Shown: positions 3,555 through 57,134 of the stretch, one piece after another
Layout of the letters: each line of letters opens with the position of its first letter
Numbering within the stretch: the stretch's first letter is position 1
The notes under the pieces: model-generated
What the model was told of the DNA's origin: nothing
Seen by the model: the letters and a program-made list of their open reading frames with translations, nothing else
The model's database searches: none
Origin: Vairimorpha necatrix
Taxonomy: Eukaryota
Assembly: GCA_036630325.1 (NCBI GenBank)
Contig: CP142736.1
Coordinates: 248,001 to 312,000 of the forward strand
Length of the DNA: 64,000 bases
Direction of reading: 5' to 3'
Position numbers and translations under genes: made by a program

Positions 3555-5246
3555 ATGAAAATTTGCAAAATTTTCACAAGTATGTTAATTGTACAGGGAT
3601 ATCAAGATGTCTACAATAAACTATATACACTAATAACTGAAAAAATTAAAAATAGAGATTATTGGGAAATTTCTAATGAAAAAAAATATTTAAGGATAAA
3701 ATTGTCTTTTGATTATTTGAATTATCAATTAGATGCGAATATATTAGAAGAATGTAACATTCTCGAAATAATAGAAGAAGAAAAAAGAATATTAGTAAAT
3801 TCTATCGAGAGATCCATTCAAGATATTGTTGTAGAGTTCGAAGATAAATTACTACATGAATGTGAAATTTTGCGTCCAGACTTTATTGTGCTAATTTATA
3901 ATCCTGCATGTTGTCAGCATAATGTGTTTAAACAAATAATCGATTTTTTAATTCAAAAAAATTTAGCAAGAAGAAATTCAATCAATCGTAGCGATCTATT
4001 ATATGAATACATAATCGAAGATATTTCATTATGGAATGTTATGTTTGTAAATTTATATAAACAAGAATATAACAACGATTTTAGTCATCAAAAAATACCA
4101 CTTACTTTTAGTAAAAGGGGAAAACAGCATTACGTAAATTTTTGTATTGAAGTCAAAAATATTAAACATTTATTTGAAATTAATGCAGAAGAAATCGGTA
4201 AGGAAAGTCTATATACTTGGAAAGATACATGCCTTGAAAAGAATAAAGAAGTAGACAGAAAAATTGGCAATTATTTTCATATGTTATACAAGAATATTTA
4301 TGTTGACAATATTGACAATTATTCTATGCCATTTTTCAAAATTTGTACTCCTTATAAAATTGAATTATTCATTAAAAAATTTCGAATTGAGATAATAGAT
4401 GATGAAATTCATCTTGGGCACCGGAATGAGAATCATATTTTCATTCCAAATAGACAAACAACATTATTTGGGAAAAGATACGCGAACGAAAATAAATGGA
4501 TCACGGAATTTAAAAGAGTTTTTAAAAAAATTCATGCAATAGATTTTTCGGAGAACCGTTGTAAAGGCGTTGAAATGTTTTTTAGATTGATTAGATATCT
4601 TAATAAAGTAGATTTTTTTATAGAAAGAATTTTAAATGCTGAAGGTTCGCCTATGAACGTTCTATTAGCACATCTATTACATATTAAAGGATTAATAAAC
4701 AGAAGTGAATTAAAAAATATTATAAATATCGAAGGTCTAATCGAAGAAAAAAAGATACAACTTTGTAAAGAATTAGAAAAAAGTTTATCAACTGATAGAT
4801 GCAATTCAATTTCTTTTTTATTAAAAATATTTTTATTCATAGAAGGTGAAAAATATATAAATAAAAACAGGTCAAACCCCGAACCCAATTTTAAAATATT
4901 GAAGATGATTGGAGCTCTAATAAAGTCGAAAGGAAAGGCTCGTGGTATTTTGAAAAAGATAGAATCAGGGTTTTTTATAAATAAAAATAAGATTGATTTG
5001 GCCGTTATATATGATGATCTAGTAAAAAATCACTTCCAAGATTATCAAAATAGTCAAAGTAATTTATGGAAGGAGGTTTTTAAAATAGCATCATTGTTTA
5101 CAGGATTAGAATCTACTAGATGTGAAATTAATGACCATACATTCTATACTTTGAAAGGAAAAATTATCAGAGAAATGGGACTTGATAAATATGAGGTAGA
5201 AAAAAATAATAAAATAATACAAAGAACTTTATTTGAAAAAAACTAA
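3555..5246 (+). CDS. Hypothetical 563-aa protein, paralog of 11860-13557; possible N-terminal signal peptide
   Basis: Long ORF, CCC motif before ATG, full-length similarity to the second copy (LRPDxIVLIYNP, EMFFRLI, GSPxNV, ASLFTGLESTRC). Confidence 0.85.
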   Translation: MKICKIFTSMLIVQGYQDVYNKLYTLITEKIKNRDYWEISNEKKYLRIKLSFDYLNYQLDANILEECNILEIIEEEKRILVNSIERSIQDIVVEFEDKLLHECEILRPDFIVLIYNPACCQHNVFKQIIDFLIQKNLARRNSINRSDLLYEYIIEDISLWNVMFVNLYKQEYNNDFSHQKIPLTFSKRGKQHYVNFCIEVKNIKHLFEINAEEIGKESLYTWKDTCLEKNKEVDRKIGNYFHMLYKNIYVDNIDNYSMPFFKICTPYKIELFIKKFRIEIIDDEIHLGHRNENHIFIPNRQTTLFGKRYANENKWITEFKRVFKKIHAIDFSENRCKGVEMFFRLIRYLNKVDFFIERILNAEGSPMNVLLAHLLHIKGLINRSELKNIINIEGLIEEKKIQLCKELEKSLSTDRCNSISFLLKIFLFIEGEKYINKNRSNPEPNFKILKMIGALIKSKGKARGILKKIESGFFINKNKIDLAVIYDDLVKNHFQDYQNSQSNLWKEVFKIASLFTGLESTRCEINDHTFYTLKGKIIREMGLDKYEVEKNNKIIQRTLFEKN

Positions 5247-11859: not shown

Positions 11860-13557
11860 ATGGATATTTTTGCAATTTTTACAAGTATATATTTTGTTGT
11901 AGGATTTTCAGAGACCTATGATAGTTTTAACACAGTTATATGTAATAAAATAAAAAACAAAGATTTTTGTTCAATTGATACTGAAAAAACATATTTGAGA
12001 GTAAAATTGGAGTTCGACAGCTCCAATAAAAGATTGAATGCGCTTATTCTAGCTAACTCTCGTATTCTTAAACTTACCGAAGTAGTAAAAATTATAGCAG
12101 TATATTGTGCTGATAAGTCTATAATATATATTGTCAGAATGTTTGAATATAAGTTAATACGTTTGTGTAAAAAATTGCGTCCAGACAATATCGTACTAAT
12201 TTACAACCCAAAACATTGTGATAACCCCGTATTTTGTCAAATAATTTCCTTTTTAATGAAAAAAAAATTAGAGAGAAAAGATGAAATCAATTGCCTCGAT
12301 CCGATATATGAATACATAATCGAAGAAATGTCATTGTGGAATTTTATGTTTGTAACTTTATATATACAAATATATAACAACGAAATTGATTACAAAATAG
12401 TACCGCTTACATATAGTAAAAATAAAAATTCGCATTATATAAATTTATGCATTGAAAGTAAAAATATTAAATATTTTTTTACAATTAACGCCCAAGATAT
12501 TGATATTGAAAATTTTTCTACTACTATAAAATGTAGAGATAAAAAAAATAGGAATAAAATAGACAATAAAATTAGCAAATATTTTCATAAATTATACAAG
12601 ACTGCTTATATCGAGGATATTGGTGGATATTCTCTGCCATTTTTCAAGATTTATACGGACGATAAAATTGAGTTTGTCAGTGGCACTTTTAGGATCAAGG
12701 TAGTAAATGATAAAATTCAATATGCACAAAAAAATAACAAATATATTATCAGTCCAATCAAACTTACAACCTACGATGGCTATAGAGACAATAATGAAAA
12801 TGAATGGATAATAAAATTTAAAGAAACTTTAGAAAGGATTCGTGCAATAGACGAATTTAAAGAAGGTCGTATTGGCACAGAAATGTTTTTTAGATTAATA
12901 ACCTTTCCTTATAAAGTGGATTTCTTCATAAGAAGGATTTTAGATGCGCAGGGTTCACCTTTAAATGTTATGTTGGGACATATTTTAATATCTGAAGGAT
13001 TAATTAACGAATCTGAGTTAATAAATATTACAACAAACGATCGCCTTAATGAAGCAAAAACAATCGAAATTTGTGAAGAATTGGAAAAAATTACATCGAA
13101 GAATTGGTGCAATCATACTTCTTTTGCAATAAAGATATTTTTATTTTTAGAAGCCGAAAAATATTTAAATGAAAACGACGCAGAAAAAAGAAATAAATTG
13201 AAAATTTTAAATAAAATTGGAAATATTATAGAGTCAAAAGAAAAAGAATATAGTATTTCAAAAAACATGACATCATTGTTATCAACGAATAAAAATAAGA
13301 TTGATCTGATAAAAATATATGAAGAACTAGTAAAAAATCATTTACAGGATTATTTAAATTATAAAAAAACTTTATGGGTGGAGGTCTTTAGAATAGCATC
13401 TTTGTTTACAGGTTTAGAATCAACTAGATGTGATATTAGAGGCTATAAATTTCAAGCTTATAAAGAAAATATTATTGAAACGTGGGGACTTGATAAATAC
13501 GAAATAGAAAAAAATAATGAAAAGATAAAAAAAGATCTAGATACTAATAAAATATAA
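11860..13557 (+). CDS. Hypothetical ~565-aa protein, paralog of 3555-5246; hydrophobic N-terminus
   Basis: Long ORF; ATG at 11860 preceded by CCC and aligning with the paralog's start. Confidence 0.85.
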   Translation: MDIFAIFTSIYFVVGFSETYDSFNTVICNKIKNKDFCSIDTEKTYLRVKLEFDSSNKRLNALILANSRILKLTEVVKIIAVYCADKSIIYIVRMFEYKLIRLCKKLRPDNIVLIYNPKHCDNPVFCQIISFLMKKKLERKDEINCLDPIYEYIIEEMSLWNFMFVTLYIQIYNNEIDYKIVPLTYSKNKNSHYINLCIESKNIKYFFTINAQDIDIENFSTTIKCRDKKNRNKIDNKISKYFHKLYKTAYIEDIGGYSLPFFKIYTDDKIEFVSGTFRIKVVNDKIQYAQKNNKYIISPIKLTTYDGYRDNNENEWIIKFKETLERIRAIDEFKEGRIGTEMFFRLITFPYKVDFFIRRILDAQGSPLNVMLGHILISEGLINESELINITTNDRLNEAKTIEICEELEKITSKNWCNHTSFAIKIFLFLEAEKYLNENDAEKRNKLKILNKIGNIIESKEKEYSISKNMTSLLSTNKNKIDLIKIYEELVKNHLQDYLNYKKTLWVEVFRIASLFTGLESTRCDIRGYKFQAYKENIIETWGLDKYEIEKNNEKIKKDLDTNKI

Positions 13558-13956
13558 TTTTATTATAATTACAACGAAACTTGTATGGACAATGTATTTA
13601 TTACATTGTAGAACTTTTATTTTATTATATTTTAAAATTCTTTTATGATAATCTAATAAAGAAGAAGTATACTTTGAACGAAAATGCCTATGTTGAAATT
13701 ATATTATAATAGCAACCCCATAATTTACTTTACGTGAAAATAAAAGAAGGCAATGCTTAATATTAACTAATATTCTTTTCTTAAAATATTTTGATCATTT
13801 CACTTTAGCACCCTTACCAATATAAATTCAAATTTTAAATTTTTACACCTGTTTCTCGAAAGTCGAAGCGGAAAAAAGTAAAGGAGCAAAAATAGAAAAA
13901 TTAAATAGCATAATTACCAATTATAAATATATTATTTTCGTTTTTTTAATTATTAC

Positions 13957-14019
13957 TGTTGAATAACTATAAATAGCTATAATATTATTAAATACCCCTT
14001 ATGTCTACTATTCTCAACA
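13957..14019 (+). repeat. 5' LTR of element 1 (63 bp)
   Basis: Direct repeat of 17989-18051; TGTTGAA...TCAACA termini. Confidence 0.95.
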
Positions 14020-17000
14020 TGGCACCCGGTACGGAAAACTCGTATAGAAGGATGGAAGCACCCAACTTCAGTTTAAAAAGTGCACTTGTAGATTGCATGA
14101 ATTTGAAATATATTTTAAAGACAAAAATATAATTGTAGATGAGGAAAAAATAAACACCGTCTTATTATTTTCAGACGATGAAGCCGCTTATTTCTTATAC
14201 ACAAACAAAGAAAATTTTACAAAAATTACATGGCGAACATTTAAGGGAAGAATTAAAAAATACATGGAAAGGAATGCTTTAGAGAAAAAAATCAAAACAA
14301 AAATATAATGAAGCAACAGCAACTTGGATAAAAAGAGTTCTTCCCCTGGCAAGTGCAGCCAACTTGCCTCAAGAATATACTAAAATGCTTATTAAGAATA
14401 CATGTGTTAACTTAGATTCAATGTTGATTATCCAAGAATGTTTGATGGAACGTAATATTTACAAAGAGAAAGAAATGATACTAAAAGATATAGATGAAGT
14501 GGAATATATTAAGTAAACTGTAAAAAAGATTAGAGCTAATAGAGAGACAGTAATTAGAAGAAAAAGCGTTTCAGAGCCAAGACATAAAGAACCCATTAAA
14601 CAAACTGACAAAACTGAAATGAAAAAATTTAATCAATTAGTAAAAGAGCCTATAGATAATAACAAAAGTGATAATGTAACTGAGATAAAACTAAACAGTG
14701 TAAATATCTCCGCTTTTATGGATGAAGGATCAGATGTGAACATCATCAATGAAAAGAAGGTAGAAGAAAGAGGACTTATTGCATTACCCTGTGAACATAC
14801 AACAATAAAAAACGTGTTTGGGGTAGTAACAGAACTGACTAAAAAGGTAGAGGTAACATTAAAAATCAATGATATTATACTTACTCAGGAATGTTATGTA
14901 GGAGCTTTTAAGAATTCCAATGAAGACATAGTTATCGGCAGGCCAACGTTAAATAAAGTAAAAAACTTAAAAATGAACTTTTGAGCTTGTATGAAAATTT
15001 CCAAGGGTTTTTGATGGAAAGACAAGCAAAGGATACACGGATATAATGTGTGAGATAAACACACCGATAGGCAAGAGAGTGAATATAAAATACAGAAATA
15101 TACCACAGGCCCTAATGAAAGGAGCACAAGAAACAATTAACAAATTATTAGAACAAGGATATATAGAATGTTCGACATCAGCTTGGTGTAATCCCATAAG
15201 ACCAGTATTGAAACCAGATGGCACTGTTAGAATTACAAACAATATGCAATTTCTGAATAACCTAGTTGAAGATAACAACTATACAATACCTGTAATTCAA
15301 AACATAGTAGATGCCACGCGAGGCAAAAGATTTTTTACAGTTATAGATCTGACAGATGCCTACTATCAAATACACCTGAAACCTGAACATAAATATAAAA
15401 CCGCATTTTATTATAAAAGTAAACTATATCAATACACACGGATGCCACAAGGCTTTAAGAATTCACCTGGCATGTTTCAAATGATAATGGATAGATTACT
15501 TGAAAACCACCTTGAAACTGCTTGTTGCGTCTATTTAGACTACATAATAATTTTTGGAACAACAGAAGAAGAACATGACAATAACCTAGCTAATGTTTTG
15601 ACGATACTTGAAAAAAACAACTTCAAGGTTAACCCAACGAAATTACAATTTAAACAAGAAACTATTGAATTATTAGGAATGATGATTGATGGAAAAAAAC
15701 AATATCCAATAGAACAACATCAAAAAAAGGTATTAGATTTTAAAGTACCAACCACAGTTAATGAGGTACAAGATTTCTAGGATTAGCTAATTATTACAGA
15801 AGATTTATCTCAAACCTAGCTACAATATCTGCTCCACTTTATGAATTACTTAAAAAGAAGAAATTTATATGAAAGGAAGAGCAACAGAAAGCATTTGATA
15901 TTATTAAAGAAAGAATCAACAGTAAGATTGCTAGACATATTCCAAACTACCAAATTCTTTATACTATCCACCGACGCATCAAATACAGGAATCGGCGCAT
16001 GCCTACAACAAGAGCACAATAACGAAATTGCAGTAGTAGATTGGGCATCCAAGAAGCTGACAGATGCTGAGAAAAAATATGGAATTACAGAGAAAGAATT
16101 TCTGGCGATGGCTTGGAGTATTACACACTTTGATTATTATCTACGAGGAAGAAAGTTTAAAGTAATAACAGATCATTCTGCAATTTTATCTATGAAGGAT
16201 AAACACATTTTTGGAAACCTACGACTAGAACGAATGAGAGAAAAATTACAGGATTACGATTTCGAAATTGAATATCGAAAAGGCAAAGAACTAATAGACG
16301 CCGATGCAATTAGCAGGATTTATGAGGATCCAAAAGGGGTTGAAGAACTTAGAACTAAAAATAAAAACGTATTAATCGCTTCTGATGGAAAGTGGTACTA
16401 TAAAGTAAATGAAAATGAAATTAGATATTTCCCCGAAGTTCTTGAAAGAAAAGATATTTTATATAAAGCACACGAAGTAAACACCGTGCATGGTGGAATA
16501 AGTGCCATGACTTACGAATTGAAAAAGAACTATTATTGGCCAAAAATGACAGAATCGATAACAAATTATATAAAAAACTGTGAATCATGTGTCCGAAACG
16601 ATCAAAAAAGCTTAGGAGGTGAAGAATTTGTAGAAACACAAAGGCCGTTAGAAATATTTGGAATGGACCTAATGTTTATTGACCAGAAGACGACACTTAT
16701 GACTTGTATAGATTACTTTACACGTAGATGTATGATAAAGCCCTTAAAATCAAAGAAAGCTAGCGTTTGTAGAAATGAAATAACAGAAATGTTTCAAGAG
16801 ATTGGAGTTCCTGAGAAAATTATTACAGACAATGGAAAAGAATTTACAGCTACAACTATAAAAAAAATCATGTCTAATATGTTAGTAAATCACCATAAAA
16901 TATCTATAGACAAGCATCAGTCTAATGGTAGGATAGAAAGATTACATAGGAAAATTTGGCAAGCATAAAAAAAAATAGAATGTAATCAAAAGGAAACATT

Positions 17001-17355
17001 AGAAGAAATTTTATATGATGTAGAAAATAAAATTAACAATACATTTAATAGAGCAATAGGTTGCACCCCGAACGAAGCATGGGATGATCCTGATAATAAA
17101 ACATTGAAAGAATTGAATAAAAAAGATTCAAAATACGGAAAAGAATTTAAAAAACTTCCACGTGAAAAATTTAGAATTGGAGAACAAGTGTTTATTCAAC
17201 AAAATCCAATGCAGGCACAGGACAAGCTCAACGATAAATACATTGAAGAGGGAATGATACATACTGTGTTAGAAAATGACTCTTACTTAGTAAAAGTAAA
17301 CGATAAACTGATCAAAAAGAGCCATTCTCAGCTCAAATTAGTACCAACTATATGA
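14001..17355 (+). pseudogene. Fragmented gag-pol of element 1
   Basis: ORF fragments at 14093 (capsid-like), 14619 (protease, FMDEGS), 15046 (RT, YLDD mutated to YLDY), 15841 (RH-INT) and 17104 (INT C-terminus). Confidence 0.9.
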
Positions 17356-17458
17356 TTGCTTGTTATAAAACCAAAAGACATAAATTTTTATTTATTACCC
17401 TTAAATAGAAACAGAAACTAGTCAAAGAACTAAAAGTATATGTAGGTCAACTTAAAAT

Positions 17459-17962
17459 ATGGAAAGTAGACTCTTGAACCTGCAGTCCAATCTGAAAGAC
17501 GGAGAAACCTTCAATTATATAATTAGGAATGCAAGTACAGATTTGGGAGAGTATATATTACAAGAAGGTTTTACAACATGGAAGGGCATCGAAAAATGTG
17601 CCGAAGACCAAAAACTCACAGCTGACACCGTTTTAAAAGTATGTGCAAACACGAGGAAAAGCACTGAAACAGTAACTGAATATCTAGGCAGACTTGGAAA
17701 GGACTTAAAACGGCTTGGAGCCACGGATAAAATGATAATAAAATATTTAAGCCTTACTATTGCTATGGGAAATGTGGAAGTCCACATGATGTTAAGCCTA
17801 TACACTGATATGGAGGAATTTTTGGCTCACACTTCTAAAATACTTACAAGCAGAACAAGAAGGAATAAGCTCACCAATAAGAAAATTTGCAGTTTTTGTA
17901 AACAACAGGGACATGAATCAGAAAAATGTTTCAAAAAGCCAAATTATAAAAAAGATCAGTAG
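17459..17962 (+). CDS. Gag-like protein with CCHC zinc knuckle, inside element 1 downstream of pol
   Basis: MHR-like ETVTEYLGRL, C-terminal CSFCKQQGHESEKC, CCC motif at 17398-17400 upstream; the 5' end is probably frameshifted. Confidence 0.75.
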   Translation: MESRLLNLQSNLKDGETFNYIIRNASTDLGEYILQEGFTTWKGIEKCAEDQKLTADTVLKVCANTRKSTETVTEYLGRLGKDLKRLGATDKMIIKYLSLTIAMGNVEVHMMLSLYTDMEEFLAHTSKILTSRTRRNKLTNKKICSFCKQQGHESEKCFKKPNYKKDQ

Positions 17963-17988
17963 ACCGCAGTCTTTTTTTTTGGGCGGGA

Positions 17989-18051
17989 TGTTGAATAACT
18001 ATAAATAGCTATAATATTATTAAATACCCCTTATGTCTACTATTTTCAACA
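17989..18051 (+). repeat. 3' LTR of element 1 (63 bp)
   Basis: Direct repeat of 13957-14019, followed by TSD ATTAC. Confidence 0.95.
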
Positions 18052-19559
18052 ATTACTTCTTTCGTTTATTAATCAAAACTTATCTTTATTATACATTTTA
18101 TATAATACAAATAAAGCTTGGTTAATTTATTTACAAACAATATATTATACGCTTTAACATAGTTTTAAACGATATTTCTTTATAAATTATAATTCTCATA
18201 ATATATGATATTTTACCTTTGGACGGAAAAATATCATATCATATAAAACTAATGATTACATGATTCAAAAAATACACAAAAGAGTATAAATATACATAAA
18301 ACAACATTGTTTTACTATAAAAACTAATTAATTACACAAAAGACCTTACTTTTTTTTATACGTAAAAATAATAATAACCTAACCTAGAATGGGTTTATAA
18401 TTACAAAAACTAATTGAAAACATGTTTACAACAACAAATATTAATTGTAATGACAAAAAAATAAAATATTTTTGTACAAATTTAGACTGCTTTTAAAGCA
18501 CATATTTACGGTAATACATCATTGTAGAGAATTTAAAATAATGTTATTCAAAATTATTGATCAAATTGATCTTAGAACCCCATTTTTTTGTACTATGTAG
18601 ATTTTTGTTTGTTCCTTTCCGTTTTGAACGCTCTAATTTTCAAAAAAAAGCGCTAAAAATAAAAAATCCTGAATTTATACTGACAAGGAGAGGGGCAAAG
18701 TGGAAATTGGCCAATGTTTTTTAAACTTTAAATGGTTTATTAAATCTGTAGATCATTAGAATTCATTTTATTAGATCTAATCAAGTAGAATTTATCAATT
18801 ATTTTTTTTGATTCGGCAAGAGCGACAAAAAAAAAATGTCGTTGACTCTAAATTTTTTACCTCCTCAAAAAATAGGATTTAAAAAAGAAAAACAATAACA
18901 GCTGTATAATCACTGATCAATTATATAATTAAATGTATAAAATATAAGTTTTTTTATAATTTTATATCTCTTAACATTATGAACATATAAAATCTTATAA
19001 TTTTGTTATTATAAAGTGTGAAATTAGAAACATTTTTCATCTAAAAAACAGTTTTATCAAATAATTAATTGATATAGGCTAAAAATATATTAAAGGAGTT
19101 TTACTTTAAAGACTGTTATGTAACATTGGAACCTTGTTTTTTTGGAAATAGCTCTCTAAATTATTGATATTAAATGTTGGTAAATTAATATAAGTTTTTA
19201 GAGAGTTACTAGACAATCGACCCCTCATCCAAAGCGTATCAAAAAAAATATCACTTCACCAAAATCGAAAAAAATAATCAATTGTTACTTTTTTGTAATT
19301 TTTTTTTCTAATGAGCGATTTTCAAAGCTATGGTTTCTTCCCCTTGCTTTCGTATTTTTCTTACTATTCATGCTAGTAAGAATTTTGGAAAAGGTAGGAG
19401 AACATGATCCTTGAAATCCTTTATATCAAGATAATGATCACAAATTTACACTTTTGATTAAAGAGAGTGTAAAAAGCCTGGTATTTTATTTGTCTCAAAG
19501 TTATGTCATGGAAACATGTCCATTGCTAGAGTTTCTTCCTTTATTGAAAGAAGGGGGTA

Positions 19560-24500: not shown

Positions 24501-26351
24501 AAAAATTTAATAGAAAATTTACCAATTAAGAATTTATTAATTGAAATATTAATAAAATATAATTTATCGATAAAGAGGATTTTAAATGAATATAAATTAT
24601 CATTAGAAGCTTATAATTGGATTTTAAAAGAAATTAAATTTAAAATTTTAAAATCAATAATTTCTCCAAATGAAATGGTAGGCACTTTGGCGGCTCAATC
24701 TGTAGGGGAGCCTGCGACACAAATGACTTTAAATACTTTCCATTTAGCAGGAGTATCAGCAAATATTACGATGGGAGTACCAAGATTAAAAGAAATTATA
24801 AATGTTGCGAAAAATATTAAGACTCCTTGTATGAAGATTTATTTAAAAGATCCATTTAATAAAACTTTAGAAATGGCTAAGAAAATCCAAAGTGAATTAG
24901 AATTTTCAGATATAAAAAGTCTCTGTGAATTTAGTGAAATTTATTATGACCCTGTGATAGAAGACACTTCTATAAAAGAAGATAAAGATTTTGTTCAGGA
25001 ATATTTTGATTTCCCTGATGAACATTTAGATTTTAGTAAAATGCCTAAATTTATCATAAGATTAAAAATTGACAGAATTAAATTGGTAAGTAAAAATTTG
25101 AAATTAGAAAATATTGTAAAAAGTTTACATGAGGCCTTTCCTAATATTTTCCATATAATTAGATCAGATGAAAATAGTCAGAATTTAATAATAAGAATAA
25201 GATGTATTTCATCTTTGAATAATAATGTAGAATATTATAATTTACAATATAAAAATATATTAAATTTAAAGATTATGGGTTATAATAAAATCAAGAAAGT
25301 TTTTATAAGTGAAGATAAAGACAAAGATGAGTGGTATTTACAGACAGATGGAGTTTGTATAAGAGAAATATTCTCTCATCCAAATGTAGAAGGACATTTG
25401 GTAACTTCTAATGATTTAAATGAAATAGTAGAAGTTTTAGGAATAGAAGCTGCTAGAGAGACAATCTTGAATGAATTGACTTTAGTTATAGACGGAAATG
25501 GAAGTTATGTCAATCATAGGCACATCAGCCTACTGGCTGATGTGATGACAATGAAGGGATACCTTACAGGTATAACAAGACATGGAGTGAATAAAGTGGG
25601 ATTTGGTGCACTAAAACGCGCATCATTTGAAGAAACTGTGGATATTTTACTAGACGCAGCTTTAGTAGCAGAAAATAATGTAACAAAAGGTATAACAGAG
25701 AATATAATGATGGGACAACTAGCCCCTTTGGGGACAGGAATAGGAGACCTGCTTTTGGATGTAAGTAAATTAGATAAAGCTATACCACTTTCTAAACCAG
25801 AATATAATTATGAAGAAGTTGATACGCCATTTATACACAGTCCAGTGTCAGAAAACCTGAGTATAAGCAGTGGAAACTGGAGCCCGGCTTATTTAGTAGA
25901 AGGAAATCGATATGCGCCAAAAACAAGTTTATATTCTCCGACGAGCCCGACTTATAGTCCAACGAGCCCAACATATAGTCCCACGAGCCCAACATATAGT
26001 CCAACAAGCCCAACTTACAGCCCGACAAGCCCAACTTATAGTCCAACGAGCCCGACCTACTCACCAACATCGCCATCGTATAGTCCGACAAGTCCGAGTT
26101 ACAGTCCAACAAGCCCGAGTTACAGTCCAACAAGCCCGAGCTATAGTCCAACAAGTCCATCTTATAGCCCAACAAGCCCATCTTACAGTCCAACATCACC
26201 GTCTTACAGTCCAACATCACCGTCTTACAGTCCAACAAGCCCGTCTTATAGTCCAACAAGCCCGTCTTATAGTCCAACAAGCCCGTCTTATAGTCCAACG
26301 TACGATAATGACGAAAAGAAAACTAATAGGAAACGAAAAGGAAAGCAATAA
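21534..26351 (+). CDS. RPB1: RNA polymerase II largest subunit
   Basis: CPGHFGH, NADFDGDEMN, GEPATQMTLNTFH and a CTD of 17 YSPTSP(T/S) heptads at 25932-26288. Confidence 0.99.
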   Translation: MFDEIVTKRISSIQFGLFSPEEIRKSSVVQIIHPETMENGFPKSGGLIDLKMGTTERAFLCSSCEKDNFSCPGHFGHIELTKPMFHVGYMTKIKKILECVCFYCSRLKISTKNLKKDLNFVWNISKTKSVCEGEIGENGFTGCGNKQPVIKKEGMSLIAFMKGEEESDGKVILNGERVHNILKKIVNEDAVFLGFDQKFTKPEWLILTVLLVPPPSVRPSIVMEGMLRAEDDLTHKLADIVKANTYLKKYELEGAPGHVVRDYEQLLQFHIATMIDNDISGQPQALQKSGRPLKSISARLKGKEGRVRGNLMGKRVDFSARSVITPDPNISVEEVGVPSEIAKIHTFPEIITPFNIDRLTKLVSNGPNEYPGANYVIRNDGQRIDLNFNRGDIKLEEGYVVERHMQDGDVVLFNRQPSLHKMSMMAHFVRVMEGKTFRLNLSCVSPYNADFDGDEMNLHMPQSYNSKAELEELCLVSKQVLSPQSNKPVMGIVQDSLTALRLFTLRDSFFDRRETMQLLYSVNINNYEFTDSSKLIMTHDDSFGNNLHTEESSNIMKILNFPAISYPKKLWTGKQILSYILPNTIYNGKSNEHNEEDLENVEDSYVIIRNGEILSGIIDKKAVGSTQGGLIHIIANDFGPDRVTCFFDDAQKMMNLYFATINAFSIGIGDAIADKETMSQVQRSIETAKEQVNEIIVKAQKNKLERLPGMSMRESFESQVNYILNKPRDISGASASKSLSFCNNMRTMVLAGSKGSFINISQVTACLGQQNVEGKRIPFGFNYRSLPHFSKADYSGKSRGFVENSYVKGITPEEFFFHAMGGREGLIDTAIKTAETGYIQRRLVKAMEDATVTLDRSVRGADGFIYQYEYGEDGFDATFLEMQKMTHDDVATKDDVSFKNLHLIDMFTDLNFAIKKENVTDQIYKLLTTDVNLQKILYDEFEWLNENVKKYEKMNIASPCNFQRIINLAIYKFDCRKGDISPYLILDTIKNLIENLPIKNLLIEILIKYNLSIKRILNEYKLSLEAYNWILKEIKFKILKSIISPNEMVGTLAAQSVGEPATQMTLNTFHLAGVSANITMGVPRLKEIINVAKNIKTPCMKIYLKDPFNKTLEMAKKIQSELEFSDIKSLCEFSEIYYDPVIEDTSIKEDKDFVQEYFDFPDEHLDFSKMPKFIIRLKIDRIKLVSKNLKLENIVKSLHEAFPNIFHIIRSDENSQNLIIRIRCISSLNNNVEYYNLQYKNILNLKIMGYNKIKKVFISEDKDKDEWYLQTDGVCIREIFSHPNVEGHLVTSNDLNEIVEVLGIEAARETILNELTLVIDGNGSYVNHRHISLLADVMTMKGYLTGITRHGVNKVGFGALKRASFEETVDILLDAALVAENNVTKGITENIMMGQLAPLGTGIGDLLLDVSKLDKAIPLSKPEYNYEEVDTPFIHSPVSENLSISSGNWSPAYLVEGNRYAPKTSLYSPTSPTYSPTSPTYSPTSPTYSPTSPTYSPTSPTYSPTSPTYSPTSPSYSPTSPSYSPTSPSYSPTSPSYSPTSPSYSPTSPSYSPTSPSYSPTSPSYSPTSPSYSPTSPSYSPTSPSYSPTYDNDEKKTNRKRKGKQ

Positions 26352-26384
26352 AATATTAATAGTAAAAAAAATTTAAAAATTTTT

Positions 26385-36224: not shown

Positions 36225-37310
36225 TTATTCTTTTAATACCAAATGCCCAAGGATCATGAAAACGCATAAGAAAAAAACAAGCCAAAGTTTTTTACTTATA
36301 TATTTTTTAGGTATATATTGCGATACTAATAAAGCTGCAACACATACAATAGGAACAAAAACTGCATAACTTAAAACTCCAAATCTATAAGAAAATGCAT
36401 CCAGTTTAAAGCCAACGTCGGTAGAAGCATCTGTAGGAGCTATATCCTCATGCAATTTGGAGAAGACAGTATCAGAGGCGCTATTAAGAAGATTTTGGTC
36501 ATATGGTATTTCCATAATATTTAAATTAGAATCATTTTCTTTGACTAATTTTTTCGATGTATCACTATTGATTATAGATCTTTTATTTCTTGATTGTTTT
36601 TTGCCTCTAAATCCGTTTCGTATATCAATATTAATACTGGTTGGCTCTACAATTTGATCCTGTGTCTTAAAATATCCAACTATCTCACTACAGTAATGTT
36701 GTCGGGTTGGATTAAATACTCGTTCATGCTTTATATTCATATTCCACCTTCGATGTTCAGGTACACACTTGTTTAAAACGCCTTGTTTGATGAAAATATT
36801 CTCTTCACACGATACATCTCCTTCGCATGCTTGTATTACTAAACTTTTGGCACATCTTAGTTTATCAAAATGTTCTTGTTGGATACAATTCCTTTTATTG
36901 CACTCTTCGTTAAAAGTTTCCGCCGCATTTACGAACCTATCTTCTAAAATTTTTTTAGTATCTTCTTCTTTAAATCTTCTTACCAAGTCAGGCTTGCCAA
37001 ATGCTTCACCTTCCTCCTGGTTATAACAATTAATATTTGTATCAGTATTAAATAATCCATGCGTATACCAATTGCAAAAAGGATTTACCCATCCTTTATA
37101 TTTACTTTGGGCTAAATTATAAATAGTAACTAGTCTTCTTTCGTTACAATGGACACATTGGTTGTATTTTCTAAGTAGACATCTCAAAAAATTTTTGTGA
37201 ACATATATTGTCTGAGTATTATCTTTGCAATGCATGTTGGCGTACATTATTTCTGATGCCATGGAGTCAGCTAATTGTTCGTCAGACTTAGGATTTTCAG
37301 TATCACACAT
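36225..37310 (-). CDS. Cys-rich protein with RNKR site and two C-terminal hydrophobic helices, family copy A
   Basis: CCC-ATG at 37310 aligns with the paralog start; first ~245 aa highly similar to 42198-43283. Confidence 0.88.
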   Translation of the reverse strand: MCDTENPKSDEQLADSMASEIMYANMHCKDNTQTIYVHKNFLRCLLRKYNQCVHCNERRLVTIYNLAQSKYKGWVNPFCNWYTHGLFNTDTNINCYNQEEGEAFGKPDLVRRFKEEDTKKILEDRFVNAAETFNEECNKRNCIQQEHFDKLRCAKSLVIQACEGDVSCEENIFIKQGVLNKCVPEHRRWNMNIKHERVFNPTRQHYCSEIVGYFKTQDQIVEPTSINIDIRNGFRGKKQSRNKRSIINSDTSKKLVKENDSNLNIMEIPYDQNLLNSASDTVFSKLHEDIAPTDASTDVGFKLDAFSYRFGVLSYAVFVPIVCVAALLVSQYIPKKYISKKLWLVFFLCVFMILGHLVLKE

Positions 37311-37859
37311 GGGATAAAATTTTTTTATTGAATTTAAATACATGTCAAAATTCTAATTTTTTTTCATTTTTATATAGATAGCTCGGAGATAGTTTATAAC
37401 TCGACAATTAAAAAAACGGAATTTGTCTTTTATTTATTGATGTATGTCAAGACCACAAATGTCAAATCTCAACAGCAACAAAATATCAATATAATACATA
37501 TATAGAACAAGAAATATTTTTGCATTTTTTTAAACTAATGTTTTTTTTTGTAAAAAAAAATTAGAGAGTTGTTTCAAACTTATAATTCACATTTTTTCAT
37601 GCTTACTTTAAAAATTTATAACTTACGTCTTTGAACTTATTTTAATAATTTAAAATGTTGTTTTATCGACACATGTCAAAATTTCAAATTTTTTTCACTT
37701 TTGATTATTTTATGATTTTTAAACACCAGACATAAGACATATAAGTTTTTTGTACTTATCCTATTCGAATTATAAATTCGTACGTTTTTTCTTTATTTTA
37801 CCATATTATTGACTTTTTGATTCGACTTTCTTTATTTTACAAATTTTAATCTGCAAACA

Positions 37860-42197: not shown

Positions 42198-43283
42198 TTA
42201 TTTGATTAATGCTAAACAAACTAAAATGCCAATTAGGCACAAGAAAAAACCAATACAGTATTTTTTAGTTAAAAATTTTTCAGGTGGACATTTCGTTATT
42301 AAATAAGCAACAACACATATAAAGAGAACTAATACTGCATAATTGAATATTTCAAACGTATATTGATAATCATTTAGTGAAGAGGAAACGTTAGAAGAGA
42401 AGTCTGCATTCGAATTTTCCTTGCGTGAGTGAGAAACCACAGCATTATAGATTTTTTTAAAAGAATTTTGCTCGCTTGGTATTTCTATAATATTATTATT
42501 CGAAACATTTTCTTTGACTAATTCTGTTGATGAATCATGTTTTTCTAAAGATCTTTTATTTCTTGATTGTATTTTGCCTCTAAATCCGTTTCGTATATCA
42601 ATAGTAATACTAGGTGGTTCTACAATTTGATCCTGTGTCTTAAAATATCCAACTATCTCACTACAGTAATGTTGTCGATTTGGATTAAATACTCGGATAT
42701 GCTGAATATTCATGTTGCTCCTTCGATGTTCAGGTACACACTTGTTTAAAACGCCTTGTTTGGTGAAAATATTCTCTTCACACGACACATCTCCTTCGCA
42801 TGCTTGTATTACTAAACTTTTGGCACATCTTAGTTTATCAAAATGTTCTTGTTGAATACAAGTCCTTTTATTACACTCTTCGTTAAAAGTAATTGCCGCA
42901 TTTACGAACCTGTCTTCTACAAATTTATTTGTATCTTCTTCTTTAAATCTTCTTGCCAAGTCAGGCTTGCCAAATGCTTCCCCCTCCTCCTGGTTATAAC
43001 AATTAATATTTGTATCAGTATCAAATAATCCATGTGTATACCAATTGCAAACAGGATTTACCCATCCTTTAAATTTATTACAGGCTAAATTATATATAGT
43101 AACTAGTCTTCTTTCATTACAATTGACACATTGGTTGTATTTTCTAAGTAGACATCTCAGGTAATTTTTATGAACATATATTGTCTGAGTATTATCTTTG
43201 CAATGCATGTTTGCGTACATTATTTCAGATGCCATTGAGGCAGCTAATTGTTCGTCAGACTTAGGATTTTCAGTATCACACAT
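42198..43283 (-). CDS. Cys-rich membrane-anchored family, copy B
   Basis: Intact 361-aa ORF, CCC-ATG, RNKR, two C-terminal hydrophobic segments. Confidence 0.88.
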   Translation of the reverse strand: MCDTENPKSDEQLAASMASEIMYANMHCKDNTQTIYVHKNYLRCLLRKYNQCVNCNERRLVTIYNLACNKFKGWVNPVCNWYTHGLFDTDTNINCYNQEEGEAFGKPDLARRFKEEDTNKFVEDRFVNAAITFNEECNKRTCIQQEHFDKLRCAKSLVIQACEGDVSCEENIFTKQGVLNKCVPEHRRSNMNIQHIRVFNPNRQHYCSEIVGYFKTQDQIVEPPSITIDIRNGFRGKIQSRNKRSLEKHDSSTELVKENVSNNNIIEIPSEQNSFKKIYNAVVSHSRKENSNADFSSNVSSSLNDYQYTFEIFNYAVLVLFICVVAYLITKCPPEKFLTKKYCIGFFLCLIGILVCLALIK

Positions 43284-50165: not shown

Positions 50166-50214
50166 TGTTATATATTCTTATATTTCTGAACCCCATTTAT
50201 GGTAAATAAATACA
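50166..50214 (+). repeat. 5' LTR of element 2 (49 bp)
   Basis: Direct repeat of 53259-53307. Confidence 0.95.
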
Positions 50215-53200
50215 TGTGGGCGATACCGAATCGTGAGCTAACAAGTGTTGGCTGTTTTCAAGAGGCCAGAAGGTTATTAGAAGAGCTTAAGAGGATTGTT
50301 TATGGACTGATATTGTCTGATTATGATTTTGAGAAAAATGTAAAGAAGGAGATTTTTGAAATGAACTGATGAGTTGAAAGAATTTATGGTTAAGAATATT
50401 AAGATTGGAGATCATTGGAAAGTTATGGAAACCAAATTAGAGGAATTGGTTAAAGTACAGGAGGGAAAGGGTATGAGATTACGGATGATTGAGGAGGTCA
50501 CAAAGATGGTGGCAGAGGAGATTAATAAATATTAGTAGAGAGGAAAGAATATTTGAAAAGAGAGGAACAATGAGGTGTTATAATTGTTCAAGAATGGGAC
50601 ATATAAATCAGATGTGTTATTATAGATATAGAAATGTTAAGAATAAAGACGAATGTGACAAGATTAAAGATGAAGGTAGCAGTAGCTGTGATGAAAGGAC
50701 TTATAGGAACACATAGGATGCTAAAAGACAAAAGAAACAAGAATGGAAGACAAGAATAAAAGATGTTATGATGAGGTAGAAAAGAACGTTCTAACATTAG
50801 AAGACATGAGAAAGAGGTTTAGGAACGTTATAGATAACGAAGAAGAAAAAATAAGATATTGTAATATTGAAAAATGCAGAATCAGAACTGAAGAAGGTAA
50901 AAAAGTTATAAGTAAGGGTCAGCAGGTGCTACAAGCGCATAAAGAAGAGCTGAGAAAATATATTCAGAAGTTAGAGACAAGGAATGTCATAAGAAGATCG
51001 ACGTCGGAATGGAGAAATCCGATTAAAGCTTTAATTAAGCCAGATGGAAGTATAAGACTGGTTAGCAATCTCATGGCATTAAATGATTTAGTGGAGAAAG
51101 ACCCTTATGAATTGGTGAACATTAGGGATATCATAAGGAACACGCAAGGGTCGAAGTTTTTCAGTGTTATAGACCTTAAGGAGGCTTTTTATGGAATCGA
51201 AATAGAGGATCAAGACAAGCATAAGACTGCATTTGAGTATGATAAGATAGTATATGAATGGAATAGTATGGTCATGGGGTTTAAAAACTCGCCTCAGATC
51301 ATGCAGAGAATTATGAATAAGATTTTTGAAAAACATTTGGGTGGTAAAATAGAAGTATACATGGATGATATAGTGATTCATGCGAAGACTAGAAAAGAAC
51401 ATGATAAATTATTTGTAGAAGCGATGAAATTGTTAGAACGGAATAATATGCGGATAAATTCAAAGAAAATTAAGTATTGCCAAAAGGAAGTCAAGTTATT
51501 GGGAGTTACATTAAACGGATATGATATGATGCCGTCTGAAATCAAGAAAAACGAAGCACTAGAGTTTCCAACGCCGCAGAATGTGTCTGACATAAGAAGA
51601 TTTTTAGGACAAAGTGGATGGTTTCGAGGATTTATTAAGAATTATGCGGAGAAGACATTATATATGACTGAAAGTTTGAAAGGTAAAAGTAAAGTATTGA
51701 ATTGGACTGATGACTTAAATAAAGAATTCGAAAATATGAAGGAAACGTTAAGAAGTATGAGTAAGTTGAAAATTGTGAACTATGACAAAGAATTTTTATT
51801 AAGAACTGACTCGAGCAATATAGGAATGGGCGCAGTACTCATGCAGAAGAATGATAAAGAAGAGTGGGTGCCAGTACAATGGGCATCGAAGAAATTCACC
51901 TCGACGTAAACTAGATATGGTATAAGTGAAAAGGAAATGTATGCCATATCTTGGGGAATAAAGAAATTTGAGTATGAGTTAAGAGGATGAAAATTTAAAG
52001 TAGAAACGGATCACAAAGCATTGGCGGAAATAAGAAGAAAGCCGTGTTTTAATAATAATAGAATTAATCGATGGATTGAAAAGATCCAAAAATTTGACTT
52101 TGAAATAGATTACAGGAAACCAGAACATATGGTCGTGGCGGATGCTTTGAGTAGGATACACGAGGAGGTTGATCCGAGAAAAGAAATTATAAAAAAAGAA
52201 GTGGGCGTCAAATTGAAGGTAAATGGTTGAAGCACGTCGAGACAATAGACGGTAAAGAATACTGGAATTTTGATTCGGGGAGGAAAGCATTGATTCCTAA
52301 AATAGAAGAAAGAGATGAGCCTATGAGACGTTATCATGAAGAGCATGGACACAGAGGACTAGGAAGCATGTATTATGCCATAAAGTTTGATTATTATTGG
52401 CCAGGAATAAAAGAAGATATAGTGAAAATGATAAAAAGATGCGAGGAGTGTCAAATTTACAATAGGAAAAGATCTGGAGGATTTGATTTTGTTGCTAAAA
52501 GCAGGTATTTAAAAAAAGTAGCGTTAGATTTAATTGATTTTAGAGATAAGGGCAAATATGTATTAGTTGCGATAGTTTACCATACGAGGATAACGTGGGG
52601 ATGTGTATTATACGATAAGAAGAGATCCTCTGTGGCCCAGTTTATTGAGAACTTATGTAGAAATGGCAGGAGGCCGAAGGAAATAATAACGGATAATGGG
52701 AAGGAATTTGATAATGTTGACTTTAAGATTTGTGTAGAAAATTGGATATTACCCATAATAAGGTAGTGTCGAGTCTCATAGAAGCAATGGTAGAGTTGAA
52801 AGAGTTATAGGAATGCTGAGAGAGCTAATGTTGAATTGAGCAAAAAGACGGCGAGTTTTGAAGACATAGTGATGGATAGCTTTAAAATTTATAATAATAG
52901 TTACCATGAAGGTATAAGAAGTACTCCCAATGAAGCGGTAAAAGACAATACGGGGAAAATGATGATATTAAATGGACCAGAAGGAGAGGAGACTACAGTA
53001 AAAGATTTGTTAGAATATATAGAGAGCGGTTTATTGAAGGACAACGAGTTAGGATAGCTAAGAAAGAAATATCAAAGGATGTAATAAATATGAAAAGGGG
53101 AATGTTTTTAGACGAAGGTATTATAATGGTGGTATGCCCTGGGGACTCGTATGTTGTATAGCTATCTAATGGGCGATATGTTAAAAAGAGACATTATGAC

Positions 53201-53258
53201 TTGAAAAATCTGCTTAGGGTCGATGGTGATGTAGGAGACTAACCGTCTTGGAGGGGGA

Positions 53259-53307
53259 TGTTATATATTCTTATATTTCTGAACCCCAATTATGGTAAAT
53301 AAATACA
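53259..53307 (+). repeat. 3' LTR of element 2 (49 bp)
   Basis: Direct repeat of 50166-50214; preceded by the PPT and followed by the TSD. Confidence 0.95.
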
Positions 53308-53679: not shown

Positions 53680-54744
53680 TTATTTCTTATGTGCAGAAAA
53701 ACCAAAGATCACAAATAAGCATAAGGAAAACAAGCCGAACCCTTTTTGCTGTAAATTTTTTTAGGCAAAAATTTAATGATAAAATAAGCCAAAACACATA
53801 TACTAGAAACTAATACTATATAGTTACACATATATGCATTAGGAAATATATTCAATACAGAGGAAACATTAGTAGAAATATCTGTAGAAGGTATCAAAGC
53901 CACTGAAGTAGAGTCGTTTGTAAACTATTTTGATCCTTTTTTAACTCCATAATGTTAAAATTAGGTTCGATTTCTTGATAAAATCTTCTGATTTTTAAAA
54001 ATTGTTTAAAGATGTTTTATTTCTTGTCTGTCTTTTGCCTCTAAACTCGTGTCTTATATCAATGTCAGCACTGGGTGGTTCGAGAAGTCGTACTTGTGTT
54101 TTAAAATATCCAACTACCTCATTATGGTAACGTTGATCATTTTCATTAAACACTCTTTCGTGATTAATGTTTATATTCCTCCTTCGACGTTCAGGTACAC
54201 ATTTGTTTAAAACTCCTTGTTTGATGAAAATATTCTCTTCATACGACACGTCTCCTTCGCATGCTTGTATGACTAAATTTTTGGCACATCTTAGTTTATC
54301 AAAATGTTCTTGTTGAATACAAGTCCCTTTATTGCACTCTTCGTTAAAAGTTTCCGCCGCATTTACGAGCCTGTCTTCTACGAATTTATTAGTATCTTCT
54401 TCTTTTAATCTTCTTACCAAATCATGTCTACCAAGTACTTCACCCTCCTCTTGGTTGTAACAATTAATATTTGTATCTGTATCATATAATATATGAGTAT
54501 ACCAATCACAAACAGGATTTGACCAACCTTTAAATTGATTGCGAGCCAAATTATAAAGGTTAACCAATCTTCCATCATCACAATTGACACATTGGTTGTA
54601 TTTTCCAGTAGACGCCTCAGATAATTTTTTTGTGAACATATATTAATTGAGTGTTGTCTTCACAATGCCTATTAGCATACATTATTTCAAGATGCAAATA
54701 TTTTAGCTAATTCTTTGTCAGATATATAATTTCGTTGCGCACAT
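53680..54744 (-). pseudogene. Cys-rich membrane-anchored family, copy C (frameshifted)
   Basis: ORF fragments 53995-54639 and 53709-53903 match copies A/B; CCC-ATG at 54744; RNKR changed to RNKT. Confidence 0.85.
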
Positions 54745-57061: not shown

Positions 57062-57134
57062 GCTCCGATGGCGTAATGGCTAACGCGTCTGCCTTCTAAG
57101 CAGAAGATTGCGGGTTCGAGTCCCGCTCGGAGTG
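57062..57134 (+). tRNA. tRNA-Arg (anticodon TCT), intronless
   Basis: Acceptor GCTCCGA/TCGGAGT, anticodon arm TCTGC-CTTCTAA-GCAGA, T arm GCGGG-TTCGAGT-CCCGC, downstream T run. Confidence 0.97.

Follow-up and report, generated by a model that had tools for sequence, protein, structure and literature searches.

Our analysis of 64,000 nucleotides of Vairimorpha necatrix DNA (contig CP142736.1; this whole stretch is hereafter the window, and coordinates are positions within it) reveals a Ty3/gypsy retrotransposon whose long terminal repeat (LTR) appears to have shrunk to the format of a microsporidian gene start, with Gag-Pol probably beginning at an ATG inside the LTR, at position 14001. Window positions 13957-18051 hold a broken copy of this element with genuine 63-bp LTRs. 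Its anatomy, its reading frame, the host-type motif before the ATG and the identity of its primer are read directly from the DNA, and the same layout recurs across gypsy families of the genome searched (G000).

The 5' LTR (13957..14019, plus strand, like every feature of the element) runs from TG to CA with a terminal inverted repeat of 6/7, agrees with the 3' LTR (17989..18051) at 62 of 63 positions, and the pair is enclosed by a target-site duplication (TSD) of 5 bp, ATTAC, present identically at 13952..13956 and 18052..18056. Within it stand TATAAA (13968..13973), a putative core promoter 33 nt 5' of the ATG; ATTAAA (13987..13992), the sole AATAAA/ATTAAA hexamer of the repeat and a candidate poly(A) signal in U3, upstream of the predicted start site; CCCC (13995..13998), a start-associated motif of the microsporidian CCC type that ends 2 nt before the ATG; and the ATG itself (14001..14003), the putative gag-pol start. 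A second in-frame ATG (14019..14021) combines the last A of the LTR with the TG of the primer binding site (PBS; 14020..14034), which abuts the LTR without a spacer and lies within codons. The polypurine tract (PPT) GGGCGGGA (17981..17988) directly precedes the 3' LTR and is conserved before sibling 3' LTRs. A previous sequence-only reading had described a 63-bp LTR with these boundaries and had placed TATAAA, CCCC and the ATG inside it, all of which is borne out. The junction ATG that it also noted is present, and since CA and TGG automatically create one when the spacer is absent, only its frame is informative.

Between the repeats, the domain order is that of Ty3/gypsy elements. A capsid-like gag1 without a CCHC knuckle and an aspartic protease region occupy 14001..14984, broken in the window copy; the protease-like Pfam matches of this region all fall under the cut-off, and the clusters nearest to sibling gag1 are Retrotrans_gag, which is a lead only. 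They are followed by reverse transcriptase (RT; 15046..15780, RVT_1 1e-30), whose best match among solved structures is Ty3 RT (3.8e-31), and by RNase H and integrase (15841..17355, likewise broken; RT_RNaseH, Integrase_H2C2 and rve matches). This order (protease, RT, RNase H, integrase), the Ty3-related RT and the terminal structure of TG..CA repeats, TSD, PBS (15 nt rather than 18) and PPT place the element in Ty3/gypsy. Integrase follows RNase H instead of preceding RT as in Ty1/copia, and with about 4.1 kb carrying gag, protease, RT, RNase H and integrase the element is unlike the non-autonomous TRIM/SMART type, which lacks coding capacity and is under 1 kb. Two departures stand out. The LTR is not the non-coding, long-U3/U5 repeat of canonical Metaviridae, having 63 bp in total and an in-frame ATG 19 nt before its end, and it carries a microsporidian CCC-type promoter context (CCC/GGG within 15 nt of an ATG after an AT-rich tract). 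The capsid fold and CCHC knuckle expected of Gag sit in a second gene, ORF2, at the place where an Errantivirus-type element would have env.

The length of the LTR is a property of the family. A DNA search of G000 with the 63-bp repeat gave 28 matches; the LTRs of family members measure 60-63 bp, and the longer LTRs in intact members that would have spoken against the sequence-only reading do not occur among them. Solo LTRs occur at 6 distinct loci (L009/L010, L014, L017, L018, L021, L023), each 61-63 bp long and flanked by its own perfect 5-bp TSD, which identifies 63 bp as the true unit. L061 and L062 have their 3' flank in common, and L009 and L010 the flanks on both sides, which points to duplication or recombination.

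Frame and primer are equally consistent. The LTR ATG, whose conservation had been proposed as a check, is held 19 nt from the LTR end in all seven family 5' LTRs that carry a PBS. Its read-through into gag is not displayed by the window copy, where the frame from 14001 is open for 43 codons before a stop, but by two siblings, L059 (175 codons) and L062 (325 codons, spanning gag and reaching the protease region); L060, L061 and L064 are open for 24, 85 and 82 codons. The genome yields 63 tRNA gene matches, of which at least one of each distinct score was compared with the PBS. As the sequence-only reading had suggested might be found, the 15 bases after the LTR match a tRNA 3' end: they equal that of a tRNA-Lys(CTT) gene in L092, with its CCA, at 15/15 positions. 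The PBS of L061 and L062 differs by one base and exactly matches a second tRNA-Lys(CTT) gene (L090), in line with recopying of the PBS from its primer. In addition, a diverged sister family with a 60-bp LTR shares ACCCCTTATG with the otherwise dissimilar 63-bp LTR, and retains the Lys PBS and the frame. A 49-bp-LTR element abuts the end of one sister-family 3' LTR (L049).

We extended the comparison to 82 regions, comprising 60 candidates with long open frames from an RNase H search (150 of 754 candidates scored), 20 family regions and the two window elements. An LTR pair was found in 75 of them and none in L063, L066, L067, L068, L072, L157 and L179. The 75 elements have LTRs of 48-350 bp, below 100 bp in 39, with a perfect 5-bp TSD in 66 and a PBS matching a tRNA at 11 or more of 13 bases in 71; the LTR ends placed by our script are off by a few bases in L064, L148, L152, L169 and L170. 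Fifty-eight elements are intact, the criterion being a frame that stays open for at least 950 codons, and the 17 further regions were excluded. An in-frame ATG lies wholly within the 5' LTR in 57 of these 58 elements (18 families), with CCC/GGG within 20 nt of it in 53, so that the framing of CCC-ATG with gag predicted for intact copies holds nearly throughout; the exception, L160, has a junction ATG only. The distance from the LTR ATG to the LTR end is 1-90 nt (median 28). With families delimited at 80% identity and expectations taken from dinucleotide shuffles, an in-frame LTR ATG occurs in 17 of 18 families against 3.4 expected (P 6e-13), and together with the CCC/GGG motif in 15 against 1.1. 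One representative from each of eight clades still gives P 4e-6 for the in-frame ATG, and the layout is present on both main branches of the tree. At the level of sequence, the layout is real and general across microsporidian gypsy elements.

These results bear on the notion that the 63-bp repeat is what remains of an LTR once longer, or that its in-frame ATG is a chance product of AT-rich DNA. The window copy is indeed decayed, and an in-frame ATG arises in 7.8% of 2000 dinucleotide shuffles of this single LTR (1.6% with the CCC/GGG motif). Against the remnant stand the TSD, PPT and PBS that directly abut the 63-bp repeats, the solo copies of equal length, and the short LTRs and perfect TSDs of the wider set; chance is rejected by the family-level test. 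We consider this explanation exceedingly improbable, and at the DNA level it is already refuted.

Some further features of the sampled elements deserve mention in their own right. In five of the 18 families (L129, L137, L147, L159, L163) the pol frame crosses the PPT and ends 41-83 nt into the 3' LTR, which makes both ends coding. The LTRs of L143/L156 and L165/L166 end in TA or AA, not CA, with perfect TSDs. In L168, L169 and L170 alike, 424-546 nt separate the end of the long frame from the 3' LTR, owing either to a shared break or to an extra open reading frame (ORF).

The context of the LTR ATG is the host's own, as CCC is enriched at host ORF starts relative to internal ATGs: the DNA retrieved holds 71 putative, unvalidated host ORFs (the L077 ORF treated below among them), of which 42 have CCC no more than 15 nt from the first ATG, compared with 20 of 481 internal ATGs. 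The host motif TATA[AT]A is most frequent at -27 to -31, and in 22 of the 71 ORFs the stop codon and a poly(A) hexamer overlap. In this regard, the portions of two studies on which we draw describe CCC within 15 nt of the ATG and an AT-rich or TATA tract near -27 in N. ceranae and E. cuniculi (PMC2685015, PMC2803860); the second places E. cuniculi 5' ends 1-7 nt before the AUG by rapid amplification of cDNA ends and gives AUUAAA as a common poly(A) variant there (PMC2803860). The CCC/GGG start motif is reported in these sources for host genes; here it is found within an LTR and before an internal gag gene (PMC2685015, PMC2803860). The proposal that the LTR was compressed onto this promoter grammar therefore stands for the DNA, and applies more broadly than was claimed.

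From this anatomy we infer a start site, a poly(A) site, a choice of AUG and a length of strong-stop DNA. The first ~40 bp of the LTR, with the TATA or AT-rich tract and CCC, would act as promoter and U3, and RNA polymerase II would start a few bases before the ATG (about 13994-14000), as on host genes. Ribosomes would use the first AUG, at 14001, so that R, U5, the integrase attachment end and the tRNA-Lys PBS would form the first ~11 codons of a single Gag-Pol protein. ATTAAA in U3 of the 3' LTR would direct cleavage ~10-20 nt downstream, leaving an R of ~10-20 nt; lying upstream of the start site, the hexamer would be missing from the 5' end of the RNA. tRNA-Lys(CTT) would then prime reverse transcription right at the LTR edge, giving strong-stop DNA of only ~20-26 nt. 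As a possible driving force, host 5' untranslated regions of 1-7 nt would cause any AUG in R-U5 to be used, and thereby select for its frame, compaction having removed the leader. A candidate start site at 13991, where a contig of run X1 begins, coincides with the LTR end minus 28 and reflects a repeat-induced break in the assembly graph; it was not used.

A different partition would follow if gag began in the LTR while transcription started further upstream, in U3 or by read-through from the host, in which case R and strong-stop DNA could reach ~40-60 nt and CCC would not set the start. Microsporidian transcription is described as running past gene ends in the portion of the E. cuniculi study used here (PMC2803860). 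Among 19 LTRs tabulated, those of the 63-bp family and six others have the poly(A) hexamer just 5' of the ATG and nowhere else, so that its 5' copy would not be transcribed; the remaining 12 have it 6-33 nt 3' of the ATG, where it would often be translated as Asn-Lys. AATAAA stops 4 nt short of the end of the 48-49-bp LTRs and cleavage is predicted beyond the LTR, so that the canonical partition need not hold. On the other side, 12 of the 19 LTRs have a TATA-like motif at -26 to -36 relative to the ATG, as on host genes, and a 63-bp LTR is too small to hold a promoter 5' of a long R. We judge an upstream start to be quite unlikely.

Several observations weigh against our preferred reading, in which Gag-Pol starts at the LTR ATG. 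Every family copy examined, that of the window included, is broken and none has an unbroken polyprotein, so that the family may no longer be active. Across 26 copies, the least variable LTR columns are the ATG (0.038) and codons 2-4 (0.017), as opposed to 0.10-0.14 upstream, which speaks for our reading, yet low variation after the ATG could fit R-U5 function as well as coding. The LTR-encoded residues differ between family and sister (MSTILN and MLVNSFN), which suggests that the peptide may only be tolerated. TATAAA of the 63-bp LTR, at -33, lies just beyond the host peak. Finally, the sampling favoured long open frames, and the families are kin.

The junction ATG adds to these points and provides the main rival explanation. 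If it were the true start, CCC-ATG would be part of the promoter or initiator, or an AUG skipped near the cap and merely in frame, and only the PBS would be translated. The junction ATG is in frame in all 11 families without a spacer and is the only start in L160; protein similarity between family and sister begins at the junction Met; and the junction AUG has G at +4, which E. cuniculi favours according to the part of the study cited (PMC2803860). However, seven families have a spacer of 1-3 nt and no in-frame junction ATG, yet all seven have an in-frame LTR ATG, and host mRNAs with leaders of 1-7 nt are translated from the first AUG in the same source (PMC2803860). On balance, we regard initiation at the junction as unlikely and initiation at 14001 as the better account.

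The window contains a second family with this layout. Its 5' LTR, of 49 bp (50166..50214, plus strand), has CCCC at 50191, ATG at 50199 and AATAAA at 50205, followed by a PBS for tRNA-Pro(AGG); the 3' LTR lies at 53259..53307 (plus strand), with TSD TTTTA. Thirty loci of this family were examined, 25 of them with a detectable PBS, and among these 25 5' LTRs the ATG is kept 16 nt from the LTR end in 22, CCC in 18 and AATAAA in 24; the L070 copy is open for 1014 codons from its LTR ATG. The sequence-only reading had cited this repeat as an unrelated LTR with the same design. The design is confirmed and the 49-bp LTR does not align to the 63-bp LTR, but the two cases are not independent, both elements falling in one RT-RNase H clade (100/100). 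Elements of 3.1-3.2 kb (window 50166-53307; L070, L171, L183) combine 48-49-bp LTRs with a polyprotein of ~1020 aa, in which a protease pattern finds no match; the same pattern also missed L143 and L147.

An LTR of this kind may also have supplied the start of a host gene. At L077 (2707-1286, minus strand), a single-copy ORF of 474 codons with hydrophobic ends starts from the ATG in a 3' LTR of 49 bp; this LTR has lost AATAAA, and its TSD matches at only 3/5 positions. We regard the ORF as a candidate for host-gene capture of an LTR promoter and start codon. It is one case among 70 motif-preceded 3'-LTR ATGs, whose median open length is 23 codons, and 17 LTR ATGs of the family are open for 7-36 codons. 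G000 holds no paralogue of the ORF, and the protein database has only its own identical record.

The post-integrase gene, ORF2 (17459..17962), lies between the integrase stop and the PPT, encodes a two-lobed capsid fold with the CCHC knuckle that Gag1 lacks, and is preceded by a host-type promoter motif, AAATTTT..ACCCTT (17382..17402). It is present, variously broken, in L059, L060, L064, L066, L067 and L068; only a remnant is left in L063, and L061 and L062 have lost the gene by deletion. Its ATG comes right after AAATTTT..ACCC in L059, L060 and L064, and is missing from the window copy. In the sister family (L189, L190) this position is occupied by a homologue of ~30% identity that lacks the knuckle and follows AACCCT in L189. 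Among 18 intact-family representatives no post-integrase gap of this kind was found, save in the L168 family, where the frame ends early.

Several comparisons point to a Gag origin for ORF2. Its AlphaFold model (pLDDT 85.7) has Gag-derived capsids as all of its top 8 VIA structure matches, including Arc (Z 9.9, rmsd 11.2, 129 aligned), the Arc C-lobe (Z 8.0, 4.2, 78), MOAP1 (Z 7.5) and copia (Z 7.3); Foldseek returned nothing at E <= 0.001, its best match being the Arc capsid at E 0.021. A gag profile from the sister clade scores 20.3 bits on ORF2 compared with 7.4 for shuffled controls, and 6.0 on Gag1, which is not above the shuffles. Twenty-four relatives came up in a phmmer search, with lengths of 161-209 aa in 15; the records of 20 were consulted, and the three that name an organism are all microsporidian (Glugoides, Nosema, Pancytospora), and two scans confirmed no relative in metagenome contigs. 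Word-based protein searches gave no match for ORF2 or, as weak evidence, for longer forms of Gag1. It is about an even bet that ORF2 is a separately transcribed capsid-nucleocapsid gene supplying the Gag excess that one fused ORF could not provide; alternatively, it may be an old captured gag retained for another role. No second gag after integrase was found in the literature searched.

Taken together, these findings allow us to propose a broader model, which we hold tentatively and at somewhat less than an even chance. The retroviral leader would have been replaced by the host's leaderless gene start, with U3-R-U5 compressed into 48-63 bp and a strong-stop DNA of ~20 nt sufficing for strand transfer; each LTR would be a portable promoter and start codon able to take over host genes; and the lineage in the window would have fixed its Gag:Pol ratio by means of a second, separately promoted capsid-nucleocapsid gene at the env position. 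The two active sites of reverse transcriptase are ~18 nt apart, and the predicted strong-stop DNA is about as short as this distance, so that the minimal needs of strand transfer could be tested in a natural element. The LTRs also set a lower bound on LTR content, at 48-63 bp relative to a textbook minimum of ~275 bp for U3 and U5. The elements would exemplify transposons that take on host transcription grammar across distant microsporidia, and the second gag gene, if true, would be a new route to Gag:Pol stoichiometry without frameshift or splicing. LTR finders have a default minimum LTR of ~100 bp; at that setting 39 of the 75 elements would escape them, and annotation would misplace the gag starts.

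Elsewhere in the window we note three paralogous host ORFs on the minus strand (36225-37343, 42198-43283, 53995-54639; 79-91% DNA likeness) and a paralogous pair on the plus strand (3555-5246 and 11860-13557; ~71-74% DNA likeness) with no Pfam match above the cut-off. Tandem repeats lie inside two ORFs, with a 21-nt unit at 25874-26356 (ORF of 1605 aa) and a 33-nt unit at 62703-63029 (768 aa). A tRNA-Arg(TCT) gene occupies 57062-57134.

Very short LTRs that form solo copies are also known in other eukaryotes, the LTR of Bombyx Mag measuring 77 bp. SMART/FRetro129 resembles our elements in this respect, but its 85-bp LTRs belong to a non-autonomous, non-coding element, whereas here shorter LTRs flank elements with their own Gag-Pol (PMC3281118, as far as the portion of that report used here extends). 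The solo LTRs of 61-63 bp imply recombination between repeats shorter still than the 85 bp of SMART (PMC3281118). The virus taxonomy committee ICTV describes the LTRs of Metaviridae as non-coding, with U3 of 200-1200 nt and U5 of 75-250 nt (PMC7879559). Our element shares with Ty3 and canonical Metaviridae the order protease-RT-RNase H-integrase, the tRNA PBS, the PPT and the TG..CA LTRs, and its RT is nearest to that of Ty3 among solved structures; it differs in that the whole LTR has 63 bp, the last 19 of them codons, and in that the post-integrase gene is a second gag, not env (PMC7879559).

The closest relatives in design come from another microsporidian. In the part of their report used here, Parisot 2014 describe single-ORF Ty3/gypsy elements in Anncaliia algerae with LTRs of 45-272 bp, median 191, four of them below 100 (PMC4202319). 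According to Supplementary Table S1 of that paper, the ORF start is smaller than the LTR length in 43 of 50 complete elements, and LTRs of only 45-90 bp are among those listed with an ORF that begins within the LTR (PMC4202319). Of six consensus 5' ends, four show CCC/GGG before the ATG clearly on inspection and two are degenerate or ambiguous (PMC4202319). These elements are thus like ours in having one ORF that starts inside the LTR and CCC/GGG before the ATG, with no second gag gene seen in the material consulted (PMC4202319). The same material yielded no comment on LTR length, coding LTR, PBS or promoter motif, and the main text nowhere uses the terms 'primer binding', 'PBS' or 'polypurine' (PMC4202319). 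Our searches found no paper on coding mini-LTRs; they did not cover the Nosema bombycis Nbr literature, which may already report short or coding LTRs.

Beyond microsporidia, a precedent is found in Saccharomyces Ty1, whose LTR is ~334 bp long. In the sections of two Ty1 studies used here, the 5' untranslated region covers nt 1-53 and the PBS, at nt 94-104, lies inside the GAG ORF (PMC4974528, PMC5454406). As is proposed for our elements, the start of GAG precedes the PBS, which is translated along with part of R-U5; unlike them, Ty1 belongs to another superfamily (Ty1/copia, Pseudoviridae), is primed by tRNA-iMet, has a 53-nt leader and a strong-stop DNA of ~90 nt, and keeps GAG and POL separate with a frameshift (PMC4974528, PMC5454406). 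In view of Ty1 and An. algerae, the sequence-only reading overstated how surprising the LTR start is. The window element is a member of Ty3/gypsy that is Ty1-like at its 5' end and far more compressed.

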